Assembly: GCF_003334255.1 (NCBI RefSeq)
Contig: NZ_QOWU01000003.1
Source of the DNA: Escherichia coli
GTDB taxonomy: Bacteria > Pseudomonadota > Gammaproteobacteria > Enterobacterales > Enterobacteriaceae
DNA: 64,000 nucleotides
Direction: 5' to 3' (one strand)
The notes below the pieces were generated by a model, which was given only the letters and a program-made list of their open reading frames with translations, ran no database searches and was not told the origin of the DNA. Position numbers and translations under genes: made by a program. Positions within the stretch are counted from its first letter, which is position 1. The number at the start of each line of letters is the position of its first letter. Positions 23,305 through 44,227 of this stretch are shown here, one piece after another.

Positions 23305-24189
23305 CTATTGCTGGTCCGATTCTGCCAGGTCATCTTGGTCCTGGCCCAGGAGCGATAATTCCAACAATGCGTATCGGTGCTCAACAAAGTTATGAACGTT
23401 GTTGGCAACCGCCAGTTTGAACAGTGCCGTGGCGCTGTCCAAATCCCCCAGACTTAGGTAGTACTTACCTAAATAGAAGTTGGTTTCACTGAGATGCTCA
23501 GCGAGCGAGGTGTTATCCGTTGCGTCCGCCTTGAGCCTTTCCATTAACGTTTGTTCGCTAATGTTGCCCAGGTAGAACTCGACAATGTTCCATCCCCACT
23601 GTTCCTTATCCGATTTTTCGAAGTGCTGTTTCAACACTTCTTTAGCCTGCTTCTCATCGAGCTTCTGCTCGGCGAGATAAAGCCACAGACTACGGAAAGG
23701 ATCATTGGGATCGTCTTGATAAAACGCCAGCAGATCATCTTGCGCTAACTTGTCACGACCGCCGTAATATAATGCGATCCCGCGATTCAAGTGCGCGTAG
23801 TTGTAAGTTGGATCAAGCTCAAGTACAGAATCAAACGCTTCATAGGCAGCATCAAAATTGCCTGCCTGCGTTAAATATATGCCTAAGTAATTGAATACTT
23901 CAGGCATATCCGGTCGGATTGCCAGCGCTTGCGAAAAATCGTTACGCGCTAATGCCCTCAGACCGAGACTATCATACAACACTCCGCGCTCATATAAAAG
24001 CTGTGCGCGTTCGTCATCGGTTAAAGCCCGACTGGCAAGGATTTGTTCCATACGTGCCAGAATCACTTCCTGCTGTAAAGTCGGTTGCAATGGTACCGCG
24101 AGGACTTCACTTTTACGCCAGGAAGTATTACTGCATCCTGCAAGCGTAAGTGCTGTCGCAACGAAACACCAGCGCAAAAAAGGCTTCAT
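23305..24189 (-). CDS. nlpI: TPR-repeat outer-membrane lipoprotein
   Basis: 294 aa; lipobox LTLAGCS; TPR repeats. Confidence 0.95.
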
Positions 24190-24297
24190 TTCCCACTCCC
24201 GAAGACCACGGTTGAATGAACGTCCTGTTCCCGGTTGCTAACAAGGCGTCCTGCCCGGTTAAAAGCCCCCCGCCGCAGCGGAGGGCAAATGGCAACC

Positions 24298-26433
24298 TTA
24301 CTCGCCCTGTTCAGCAGCCGGAGCTTCCGGTGCTGCAGCAGGTTGAGACTGCTCAGTCGCTTCTTTAATGCTCAGACGGATACGGCCCTGGCGATCAACT
24401 TCCAGAACTTTCACCGGTACTTCCTGACCCATCTGCAGGTAATCGGTCACTTTCTCAACGCGTTTGTCAGCGATTTGAGAGATGTGGACCAGACCTTCTT
24501 TACCGCCGCCGATGGCAACAAATGCGCCAAAGTCAACGATACGGGTCACTTTACCAGTGTAGACGCGGCCCACTTCGATTTCTGCAGTGATCTCTTCGAT
24601 ACGACGAATAGCATGTTTCGCTTTCTCGCCGTCGGTCGCTGCAATCTTCACAGTACCGTCATCTTCGATTTCGATGGTGGTGCCAGTTTCTTCGGTCAGA
24701 GCACGGATTACAGAACCGCCTTTACCGATAACATCTTTGATCTTGTCCGGGTTGATCTTGATGGTATGGATACGCGGTGCGAACTCAGAGATATCGCCAC
24801 GCGGCGCGTTGATCGCCTGTTCCATTACGCCCAGGATATGCAGACGCGCACCTTTAGCCTGGTTCAGCGCAACCTGCATGATCTCTTTGGTGATACCTTC
24901 AATTTTGATATCCATCTGCAGTGCAGAGATACCGTCGCGGGAACCTGCAACTTTGAAGTCCATATCGCCCAGGTGATCTTCGTCGCCCAAAATGTCAGAC
25001 AGTACAACGTAGTTGTCGCCTTCTTTCACCAGACCCATTGCGATACCCGCAACGGCAGCTTTGATCGGCACACCTGCGTCCATCAGCGCCAGAGACGCGC
25101 CGCACACGGAAGCCATAGAAGAGGAACCGTTGGATTCAGTGATTTCAGACACAACACGTACGGTGTACGGGAATTTGTCCATATCCGGCATGACTGCCAG
25201 CACGCCGCGCTTCGCCAGACGACCGTGACCAATTTCACGACGCTTCGGAGAACCGACCATGCCGGTTTCGCCTACGGAGTACGGAGGGAAGTTGTAGTGG
25301 AACAGGAAGGTATCGGTACGTTCGCCCATCAGTTCATCAAGAACCTGCGCGTCACGAGCAGTACCCAGCGTTGCGGTAACCAGCGCCTGCGTTTCACCAC
25401 GGGTGAACAGCGCAGAACCGTGAGTACGCGGCAGCACGCCAGTACGCACATCCAGACCACGGATCATATCTTTTTCACGACCGTCGATACGCGGTTCGCC
25501 TGCCAGTACGCGGCTACGAACAACGTTTTTCTCGATCGCGTGCAGAATTTCACCCAGTTCGTTTTCGTCCAGGGTTTCGTCTTCAGCAAGCAGCGTCGCG
25601 ATGGTTTCAGATTTGATGACATCAACCTGCGCATAACGCTCTTGTTTGTCGGTGATGCGGTAAGCATCGCTCAGGCGAGCTTCAGCCAGTGCAGCAACGC
25701 GCGCGTTTAGCGCTTCGTTTACCGGCTCCGGCTGCCAGTCCCAACGCGGTTTACCGGCTTCTTTCACCAGTTCATTGATGTTCTGAATAACAACCTGCTG
25801 TTGTTCATGACCGAACACTACTGCGCCCAGCATCTGGTCTTCGCTCAGCAGTTGAGCTTCAGATTCAACCATCAGTACAGCGGCTTCAGTACCGGCAACA
25901 ACCAGATCCAGTTTGCTCTCTTTCAGCTCGTCCTGAGTCGGGTTCAGTACGTACTGGTCATTGATGTAACCTACGCGGGCAGCACCAATCGGGCCATTGA
26001 ACGGAATACCAGACAGAGACAGCGCTGCGGAAGCACCAATCATCGCGACGATATCCGGGTTAACTTGCGGGTTAACAGAAACCACGGTGGCGATAACCTG
26101 AACTTCGTTGACGAAGCCTTCCGGGAACAGCGGGCGAATCGGGCGGTCAATCAGACGCGCGATCAGGGTTTCGCCTTCGCTTGGGCGGCCTTCACGACGG
26201 AAGAAGCTACCCGGGATACGACCAGCAGCGTAGGTACGCTCCTGATAGTTAACGGTCAGTGGGAAGAAGTCCTGACCTGGTTTGGCTTTTTTCTGGCCAA
26301 CAACGGTAACGAATACCGCGGTGTCATCCATGCTAACCATAACAGCGGCAGTAGCCTGACGAGCCATCATGCCGGTTTCCAGAGTCACGGTGTGTTGGCC
26401 GTACTGGAATTTACGAACGATCGGATTAAGCAA
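24298..26433 (-). CDS. pnp: Polynucleotide phosphorylase
   Basis: 711 aa from TTG at 26431-26433 ([21 protein letters not shown]…); PNPase family with C-terminal KH and S1 regions. Confidence 0.95.
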
Positions 26434-26634
26434 TGTAATATCCTTTCTCTTTCTTAGACAGTACCTTACGGCACTGGTGTTAATACCCGATCTTCTGCGC
26501 ATCCTCGCGACTAATGACAACCCTAACCCAGCTCTATGTGGGTAAAGCCTCTCATTAGCCGCGCGAACCTCTGCAACGGAAGATCATTCATAGCAACAAT
26601 ACATTAGTTTCCAGTGAATTGCTGCCGTCAGCTT

Positions 26635-26660
26635 GAAAAAAGGGGCCACTCAGGCCCCCT
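26635..26660 (-). terminator. rpsO intrinsic terminator (bidirectional hairpin)
   Basis: GGGGCC-ACTCA-GGCCCC flanked by A-run and T-run. Confidence 0.75.
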
Positions 26661-26679
26661 TTTCTGAAACTCGCAAGAA

Positions 26680-27045
<366 letters not shown>

Positions 27046-27097
27046 TTAAGCGGCAGTATTCTACTCGTAGCGACCTGTTATCGCAAGACGGTTAACA

Positions 27098-28042
27098 TTA
27101 CGCCGGGTATTCAACCACCAGGCGACGAGGCGCAACGCGGCCTTCATCGTCAATTTCGCCCATACCGATAAATTTGCCGTTCTCACCTTCCGTGACGCGA
27201 ACCAGTCCTTCCAGTGGCGCACCAGATGTACGAACCGGGTTACCATTTTTGAAGTAAACAGAAGACGTTAACGGAAGATTCACCACCGGATAGTCCGAAG
27301 CTGGACTGTCCATTGGCATCAGTAATGGATCAAGTAACTCCGCGGCTGGAATATCCTGCTGTTCAGCTTGCTCAACAAGTTCACGCAGGTGCTCCAGGGT
27401 CACCATCCGTTCAACCGGATATTTACTTACCGCCAGACGGCGCAGGTAAATAACATGCGCGCCACAGCCGAGTTTTTCACCCAGGTCATCAATGATGGTG
27501 CGGATATAAGTGCCTTTTGAGCAGTGAATTTCCAGCTCCAGCTCATTGCCTTCATGGCGAATAAACAGCAATTCATAAACGGTAATCGGACGCGCTTCAC
27601 GCGGAACTTCAATGCCCTGACGCGCATATTCGTACAGTTTTTTGCCCTGATATTTCAGTGCTGAATACATCGAAGGGATCTGTTCGATATCGCCACGGAA
27701 AGTATCCAGTGCCGCTGCCAGCTGCTCTGCGCTAAAGGTTACCGGACGTTCTTCAACGATCTGTCCGTCGGCATCAGAAGTATCGGTACGCTGTCCAAGA
27801 CGCGCAATGACCCGATAGCGTTTGTCGGAGTCCAGCAGATACTGGGAAAACTTCGTCGCTTCCCCGAGGCAAATCGGCAACATGCCGGTCGCCAGCGGGT
27901 CCAGCGCACCGGTATGCCCGGCACGGTTGGCGTTATATATACGTTTCACTTTTTGCAGCGCATCGTTGCTGGACATACCCTGAGGTTTATCCAGCAACAA
28001 AACGCCGTTAATGTCGCGACCGCGACGACGAGGACGACTCAT
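27098..28042 (-). CDS. truB: tRNA pseudouridine-55 synthase
   Basis: 314 aa; TruB family (pseudouridine synthase catalytic Asp motif region). Confidence 0.95.
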
Positions 28043-28485: not shown

Positions 28486-28520
28486 AAAATTAATTTCAGG
28501 TGGAAGGGCTGTTCACGTTG

Positions 28521-28593
28521 ACCTGATAAGACGCGCCAGCGTCACATCAGGCAATCCATGCCGGATGCAGCGTAAACGCCTTATCCCGCATGG
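28521..28593. repeat. REP elements in infB-rbfA intergenic region
   Basis: GACCTGATAAGACGCGCCAGCGTCACATCAGGC and GCCGGATGCAGCGTAAACGCCTTATCCCGCATGG. Confidence 0.75.
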
Positions 28594-33271: not shown

Positions 33272-33330
33272 GCCCACCCCCAAGACATAAAAAAAGGGCC
33301 TAAAGCCCAGTTATTCTGTAGTCAGATAAC

Positions 33331-33356
33331 AAAAAACCCCGATAAATCGGGGCTTT
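33331..33356 (-). terminator. Hairpin terminator/attenuator downstream of metY tRNA
   Basis: Minus strand AGCCCCGAT-TTAT-CGGGGTTTTTT between metY and rimP. Confidence 0.65.
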
Positions 33357-33477
33357 ATATAACTGAACCCTATAACCGCAACTGCGGTCTGGAGCACTTT
33401 CCAGAAGGATTTTTTCAAATCCCACTACGAAGGCCGAAGTCTTCACAGTATATTTGAAAAAGGACTCTAAGGGAAAG

Positions 33478-33554
<77 letters not shown>

Positions 33555-37336: not shown

Positions 37337-37423
37337 TGGTACCGAGGACGGGACTTGAACCCGTAAGCCCTATTGGGCACTACCACCTCAAGGTAGCGTG
37401 TCTACCAATTCCACCACCTCGGC
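37337..37423 (-). tRNA. leuU: tRNA-Leu (GAG anticodon)
   Basis: Minus strand reads GCCGAGGTGGTGGAATTGGTAGACACGCTACCTTGAGGTGGTAGTGCCCAATAGGGCTTACGGGTTCAAGTCCCGTCCTCGGTACCA (87 nt, long variable arm). Confidence 0.95.
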
Positions 37424-43980: not shown

Positions 43981-44227
43981 TTGTTATACCTCTTGAATAT
44001 TCCTGATGGGGCAAGTCTTCACCCACCCCGGCTGTTCGGCCTGCCCGGCATAACTCCTCACCGGGACCAGAAGCAAAAAAATACCGACCCGGGTACAAGT
44101 CCCAGGTCAGCTACAATTCACATTTTGATAGTCATTTTACCCTGAAGTTCCCGAAGGGTCATCGTTTACTTTATAGGGCGTTGCGCCGTAGTATGACGGC
44201 TCGATTCCAGGTTGTTAGCGCGAGATT

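Follow-up and report, generated by a model that had tools for sequence, protein, structure and literature searches.

The 246-nt interval at positions 26434-26679, between the rpsO stop codon and the pnp start, is almost certainly the rpsO-pnp intercistronic control region of Escherichia coli K-12, working as published. The window (the whole stretch of DNA analyzed, 64,000 nucleotides) is identical to MG1655 over the part compared: positions 23765-27765 (4,001 bases) correspond to MG1655 3308500-3312500 with zero base differences, such that the window coordinate equals the MG1655 coordinate − 3284735. Since the DNA is the same as that of MG1655 over the 4 kb checked, annotated MG1655 positions could be transferred directly to the window. 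When 901 bases spanning the interval were compared with E. coli chromosomes, they were found at 100% identity, and they were present in 5,426 of 5,426 complete genomes. On the minus strand the gene order is truB (27098-28042), rpsO, pnp, and nlpI (23305-24189), and pnp, sraG, and rpsO are all present in the existing annotation of the region. The gene order, the TTG start, the hairpin, and the terminator all match the E. coli K-12 region described by Fontaine et al. (2016, RNA 22:1560; PMC5029454), which is the type example itself and from which no difference was found; that paper already reports the toe-print at the UUG, the sites cut by RNase III, SraG, and "the same bidirectional terminator." The whole feature was known in detail beforehand, and the observation made in the first-pass annotation of this DNA is correct but ordinary. 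Current understanding of the region is unchanged by our analysis, which adds modest refinements: an invariant UUG, a strand asymmetry in the leader hairpin, the conservation of the core of that hairpin, and a patchy SraG promoter. The features discussed below are collected in Table 1.

Among the enzymes that degrade RNA, PNPase is a major one, and the interval is a textbook example of autoregulation that acts in layers after transcription. RNAs begun at the rpsO promoter (P1) would either stop at the GC hairpin terminator T1 or read through into pnp, and P2, just downstream of T1, would produce a monocistronic pnp mRNA whose leader is ~155 nt long. Both pnp mRNAs would carry the near-perfect hairpin of ~97 nt, both arms of which would be cut by RNase III. 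PNPase would then degrade the short 5' strand still paired to the processed mRNA, and removal of this strand would expose the leader to RNase E and to CsrA, for which there would be two GGA sites, one of them on the Shine-Dalgarno sequence. With CsrA blocking translation and RNase E inactivating the message, PNPase would repress its own synthesis; without RNase III, PNPase would compete with S1 for the leader. Translation would begin at the UUG behind the AAGGA Shine-Dalgarno sequence. The 216-nt SraG RNA would start 15 nt upstream of the UUG on the plus strand, run antisense through the whole P2 leader, and end at the GC hairpin, and its pairing would prevent 30S binding and add RNase III sites, thereby fine-tuning the PNPase level.

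The steps that involve RNase III, PNPase, CsrA, RNase E, and S1, as well as the effects of SraG, are taken from PMC5029454 and from a review (PMC8708148), and SraG has been reported to block the UUG toe-print (PMC5029454). What we computed were the coordinates, the fold, the strand asymmetry, the conservation, the covariation, and the conserved UUG; these computations support the anatomy that the published mechanism requires, with the enzymology itself coming from the literature. Other RNase III-cleaved 5' leaders, such as that of rnc (rncO), likewise have a long imperfect 5' UTR hairpin whose cutting destabilizes the message (PMC8708148), whereas in pnp the cut is insufficient by itself: the short 5' strand has to be removed by PNPase, the product of the regulated gene, and additional control comes from CsrA and SraG (PMC5029454).

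Table 1. Features of the rpsO-pnp region in window coordinates
Feature	Position	Strand	Basis or remark
rpsO CDS (ribosomal protein S15; the operon's upstream gene)	26680..26949	-	ORF list and RefSeq annotation
Intrinsic terminator shared by rpsO (as T1) and SraG (as T)	26636..26664	both	Scan, folds, annotated SraG 3' end, PMC5029454
Hairpin GGCAGCAAU…AUUGUUGCU, 9 bp	26592..26626	-	Folds; spans the P2 promoter region, mirrored in SraG
pnp promoter P2	26588..26601	-	Likely −10 TATTGT at 26601-26596; derived start ~26588, 155-nt 5' UTR
RNase III-processed stem-loop R (97 nt, 37 pairs)	26489..26585	-	Fold, covariation, covariance model, literature cuts
GAGGAUG motif, 3' arm of R	26500..26506	-	Contains GGA and the in-frame ATG 26502-26500
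Short hairpin CAGUGCC-GUAA-GGUACUG, between R and the Shine-Dalgarno sequence	26459..26476	-	Folds; overlapped by the 5' 42 nt of SraG
SraG (primary transcript of 216 nt; antisense to the leader of pnp)	26448..26663	+	MG1655 b4449 at 3311183-3311398
pnp Shine-Dalgarno sequence AAGGA	26441..26445	-	Precedes the UUG by 7 nt; doubles as the second CsrA site per PMC5029454
SraG −10 box TAATAT (putative)	26436..26441	+	In the spacer between the Shine-Dalgarno sequence and UUG; 6 nt before the SraG start
pnp CDS (PNPase, 711 aa)	24298..26433	-	RefSeq; start codon TTG 26433..26431

For comparison, 80 loci from distinct Enterobacterales species were retrieved with the S15 protein as the query. At the rpsO end of the interval lies a GC hairpin in which GGGGCC and GGCCCC are separated by 5 nt (26642-26658). 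On the minus strand, where a UUUUUU run comes after the stem, it reads AAAAGGGGGCC-UGAGU-GGCCCCUUUUUU and is extended by A:U pairs (−22 kcal/mol). On the plus strand (AAAAAAGGGGCC…GGCCCCCUUUU), GGGGCC-ACUCA-GGCCCC is followed by C-UUUU-C (−15.7 kcal/mol, z = −2.0). T-runs had been proposed on both sides of this hairpin, and each strand does carry a U-run, although the one on the SraG side is short, at only 4 U. A scan of a 1-kb stretch returned five terminator-like sites relative to 0.9 expected. The GGGCC…GGCCCC stem is present in 77 of 78 distinct loci, preceded on the rpsO strand by a run rich in purines and followed by one rich in T, and the annotated 3' end of SraG (26663) is the last U of the plus-strand run. 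SraG and rpsO have been described as ending at the "same bidirectional terminator," with some read-through (PMC5029454). Since the SraG and rpsO transcripts both stop at the GC hairpin, termination would occur in both directions, and the first-pass description of the rpsO terminator as bidirectional is supported by the U-run on each strand, by the position of the SraG 3' end, and by the published wording (PMC5029454).

We consider it unlikely that the hairpin terminates rpsO only, with the SraG 3' ends at 26663 arising by trimming or processing of a longer antisense RNA, even though the plus-strand stem has the weaker fold and is followed merely by C-UUUU-C, and even though the purine run of many relatives is broken by a G (e.g., AGAAAGAGG), which makes the antisense U-run poorer still. 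A stable stem of six GC pairs followed by four U's is nevertheless within the range of functional intrinsic terminators. Some read-through and an RNase III site inside the SraG terminator have been reported, as processing of a longer RNA might lead one to expect, but most of the SraG 3' ends mapped by cRT-PCR fell at the terminator, in some cases with short untemplated A tails, and the authors themselves name it the same bidirectional terminator (PMC5029454).

The leader had been described as long and structured, and the interval indeed folds far better than shuffled sequence: positions 26420-26640 on the minus strand reached −76.5 kcal/mol, compared with −56.6 ± 4.4 kcal/mol for shuffles (z = −4.5), and 0 of 200 shuffles were as stable. 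The length of ~245 nt originally given for this leader agrees with the intergenic distance of 246 nt but not with the leader of the P2 transcript, which is only ~155 nt. The RNase III-processed autoregulatory stem-loop, which the first-pass annotation had assigned to the interval from the literature, could be placed as hairpin R (Table 1), an extended duplex with few interruptions that lies within the pnp 5' UTR, 3' of the derived P2 start. Folded alone, hairpin R reached −47.6 kcal/mol (z = −6.0).

Covariation across relatives agrees with this placement. In a plain MAFFT alignment of 71 distinct species, 92.1% of the cells in the columns of hairpin R were paired, relative to 37-46% in slid controls in which the partner was shifted by 1-3 columns. 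Changes on both sides were observed at 19 pairs (138 cells), which 0 of 500 shuffles matched, and the covariation score was 0.200 versus 0.04-0.07. A covariance model made from the MAFFT alignment had a single match in the 64-kb window (109.2 bits, minus strand) and also matched 76 of the 78 related loci searched; the alignment produced by the covariance-model search mixes both strands and was left out of the pair counts.

The compensatory changes are confined to the basal and apical parts of hairpin R, while its central part is invariant. The two arms of this core, 26549-26567 (UUCGCGCGGCUAAUGAGAG) and 26500-26520 (UUGUCAUUAGUCGCGAGGAUG) on the minus strand, comprise 40 nt in all and have a mean column identity of 0.98-0.99 among the 71 Enterobacterales species. 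The corresponding values for pnp and rpsO are 0.96-0.99 at codon positions 1 and 2 and 0.73-0.81 at third codon positions. Conservation of the core arms is therefore at the level of non-synonymous codon positions, which is far more than base pairing alone needs. Several relatives have insertions in the apical loop with the core arms intact, namely, Serratia sp. DD3 (~125 nt; L054:1547-1782), Dickeya oryzae (~50 nt; L031:1557-1716), and Budvicia (~25 nt; L059:1558-1691). The Serratia sp. DD3 insert (…GAGTGAGTCCCTAGGAGCATAGATAACTATGTGACTAGGGTGAACGAG…) may resemble an ERIC/IRU repeat.

The P2 start was derived from the in vitro pnp RNA, which has been described as extending from +1 to +234 and ending at a primer complementary to ORF nt 62-79 (PMC5029454). 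These figures give a 5' UTR of 155 nt and place the P2 +1 at ~26588 (±3 nt). The sequence TGTATTG (26603-26597) is near-invariant in the alignment of relatives, and the TATTGT that it overlaps is likely the −10 element of P2. When the RIII1 and RIII2 cuts, published as +39 and +77 relative to the P2 start (PMC5029454), were mapped via this derived start, they fell at ~26549/26550 and ~26511/26512 (±3 nt), both within the invariant core. An ideal 2-nt 3' overhang on the predicted helix, with a separation of 38 nt, would need cuts after 26553 and 26515 (fold index 36 and 74), ~3 nt from the published cuts, so that either the transcription start site or the cut coordinates are uncertain by ~3 nt. 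A scan of the region for consensus sigma-70 promoters detected neither P2 nor the SraG promoter, both of which are weak matches to the sigma-70 consensus, and a search by eye for the −35 of each yielded no convincing element.

SraG had likewise been expected within the interval, and its ends could be mapped (Table 1) using Rfam model RF00082 and the MG1655 annotation; it is flanked by rpsO and pnp, which are both on the other strand. RF00082 matched 26492-26663 on the plus strand with 164.3 bits, relative to a gathering score of 50, over model positions 1-177 of 177. The model represents the older 174-nt form that begins at 26492, and the 5' 42 nt (26448-26489), which have been found to be functionally essential (PMC5029454), fall outside it. 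The primary transcript has been re-mapped to 216 nt, with a transcription start site 42 nt upstream of the old 5' end, and cRT-PCR ends and a −10 mutant have been described for SraG as a transcript of its own (PMC5029454). The annotated extent agrees with this re-mapping. Given the SraG start 15 nt upstream of the UUG, pairing would stop 3 nt short of the Shine-Dalgarno sequence at 26445-26441, in agreement with PMC5029454.

The TAATAT hexamer in the spacer behind the Shine-Dalgarno sequence is likely the SraG −10 box, consistent with the published remark that the SraG −10 mutation is near the Shine-Dalgarno sequence without overlapping it (PMC5029454). This putative −10 hexamer is retained in only 25 of 78 loci. 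Of 20 diverse related loci, 19 exceeded the gathering score of RF00082, but because the model shares its DNA with the pnp leader, such matches cannot distinguish an sRNA gene from a leader.

Since hairpin R and SraG share the same DNA on opposite strands, we compared the folds of the two RNAs. The mirrored hairpin in SraG reached −34.9 kcal/mol (z = −5.0), and in every one of the 72 species compared, the pnp-sense fold exceeded the antisense fold in stability, by 5-30 kcal/mol (median, 17 kcal/mol). This asymmetry arises because near-invariant G·U pairs in hairpin R (G·U in 69/71 species, U·G in 66/71, and G·U in 55/71) turn into C·A mismatches on the plus strand. It is thus highly improbable that the long hairpin is primarily a structure of SraG, with the copy in the pnp leader as a by-product. 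The mirrored hairpin is itself well folded, the Rfam SraG model encodes it, and RNase III cleaves SraG at the mirror sites in vitro (PMC5029454); however, such a view is opposed not only by the greater stability of the pnp-sense hairpin in every species and by the conserved wobbles but also by the patchy retention of the SraG −10 hexamer alongside an invariant hairpin core. Moreover, the sense-strand covariance model scored 36.9 bits on the plus strand versus 109.2 on the minus strand, and compensatory changes specific to the plus strand (pnp A·C, i.e., SraG G·U) were absent from the conserved wobble positions. An origin of the hairpin as an SraG element was therefore rejected on the strand asymmetry. 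Given the stability difference in 72/72 species, the conserved G·U pairs, and an SraG −10 in only 25/78 loci, we conclude that the structure of hairpin R is selected on the pnp mRNA.

A broader proposal, which we put forward as possible but doubtful, is that the cis-acting pnp leader (the UUG, the 40-nt core, and the hairpin before the Shine-Dalgarno sequence) represents the ancient element under selection and that SraG is a later, lineage-restricted add-on. Conservation of the core across seven Enterobacterales families, optimization of the fold on the pnp strand only, and the presence of the −10 box in about one-third of the species would all point in this direction. If this proposal were true, the core would have an unrecognized sequence-specific reader, beyond the loose requirements of RNase III, and "SraG family" matches in many genera would be pnp leaders rather than sRNA genes. 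The comparative figures may guide the question of SraG function outside Escherichia, Salmonella, and Yersinia.

On either side of hairpin R, in the stretch from the terminator to R and in that from R to the Shine-Dalgarno sequence, RNAalifold returned no consensus structure; the MAFFT alignment is poor in both stretches. A pair count for the named structure was used instead in the former, and per-species folds were compared with shuffles in the latter. The hairpin at 26592-26626 received moderate support, with 82% of cells paired versus 28-69% in slid controls (65-69% at ±3). Since this hairpin spans P2, it would be present only in read-through transcripts from P1 (rpsO) and, mirrored, in SraG. 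For the region at 26459-26476, all 77 distinct loci gave a predicted hairpin, 69 of them with z < −1.64 (median z, −2.9); only the structure is conserved, the sequence not being alignable between genera.

Just two GGA motifs are found downstream of the RNase III cut, one in GAGGAUG (26506-26500) and the other in the Shine-Dalgarno sequence. This number agrees with the published description of CsrA binding at two sites after processing, the Shine-Dalgarno sequence carrying one of them (PMC5029454, citing Park 2015), and the GGA of GAGGAUG is a candidate for the upstream site. The first G of this GGA is a G in 66 of 71 species, and the columns of the ATG are conserved at 90% or higher.

At the pnp end of the interval, the minus strand reads …AAGGATATTACA TTG CTT AAT CCG ATC GTT CGT AAA TTC…, which encodes LNPIVRKF after the start, and this TTG is the RefSeq start of pnp in both the PGAP-annotated strain and MG1655. 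TTG is the codon that aligns with the first residue of PNPase in the 79 loci whose contig reaches pnp and in the window (80/80). The tblastn match starts at residue 1 in 80/80, and an AGG(A/G) core precedes the TTG in 80/80 loci with slight variation in spacing. The frame is closed by a stop just one codon before the TTG in 11 loci and 1-5 codons before it in many. Among 78 distinct loci, the open frame upstream of the TTG lacks an in-frame ATG in 64; in the remaining 14, such an ATG occurs at inconsistent distances (6-117 nt). PDB chains of the 711-aa PNPase (7OGK and 3GCM) begin at the TTG-encoded residue, whereas 3CDI and 3CDJ include six residues encoded 5' of the TTG (KRKDITL), a relic of a longer frame. 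In published work, a 30S toe-print was obtained 15 nt from the pnp UUG, and a TTG-to-TGA mutant served to abolish pnp translation initiation (PMC5029454). Taken together, the TTG in 80/80 loci, the upstream stops, the inconsistent ATGs, the 711-aa PDB chains, the toe-print, and the mutant confirm the prediction that pnp starts at UUG, and the alignments indicate that this UUG is invariant across the order.

The first-pass statement that the canonical PNPase N terminus is obtained only from this TTG is accordingly borne out. Its companion, that no upstream ATG gives the known protein, is literally true but passed over a candidate start, since an in-frame ATG exists 23 codons upstream (26502-26500); in E. 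coli the in-frame upstream ORF opens at TTG 26520, and the frame is open from there to the pnp TTG. Translation from this ATG, which would yield a 734-aa protein with the TTG as an internal leucine codon, is refuted for practical purposes: although the frame is open, the ATG sits in the highly conserved GAGGAUG motif, and some workers have used a longer frame (3CDI/3CDJ), the ATG is not conserved as a start, is preceded by no Shine-Dalgarno sequence, and is buried in a hairpin stem, and the nearby in-frame stops, the 7OGK and 3GCM chains, and the toe-print at the UUG (PMC5029454) all speak against it. The most distant locus, that of "Candidatus Schmidhempelia bombi" (Orbales; L050:1600-1723), keeps the TTG start and matches the hairpin model weakly, at 45 bits; the GGGGCC terminator is absent, and there is no SraG Rfam match. 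Given its TTG and weak hairpin match, the UUG and the hairpin may extend beyond the Enterobacterales.

The other cis-regulatory RNA of the operon, the ribosomal S15 leader (Rfam RF00114), was matched at 26893-27007 on the minus strand (117.6 bits); it controls rpsO translation via S15 binding and, unlike the pnp leader, lies outside the rpsO-pnp interval. The other Rfam families that exceeded their gathering score in this DNA, all on the minus strand, were naRNA4 (a REP-derived nucleoid-associated RNA; 28520-28590), the rimP leader (33289-33389), two tRNAs (33481-33554 and 37340-37423), and the greA leader (44076-44197). All of these matches, the S15 leader included, are what one would expect in this portion of the E. 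coli chromosome.

Two variations in the organization of the junction were seen among the relatives. In Affinibrenneria salicis, scaffold NZ_VYKJ01000001.1 carries two rpsO-pnp junctions in opposite orientations, at ~394-397 kb (L020) and ~678-681 kb (L021), with identical intergenic sequences, reflecting either a real duplication or an assembly artifact. In the Erwiniaceae (Erwinia, Pantoea, and Tatumella), the intergenic stretch between rpsO and pnp measures ~300-320 nt, and an additional long hairpin (e.g., GAATCTGATC…GATCAGATTT) lies between the rpsO stop codon and T1, ~65 nt past the stop (loci L023, L029, L042, L046, L053, L061-L063, L067-L070, L073, L077, L078, and L081).
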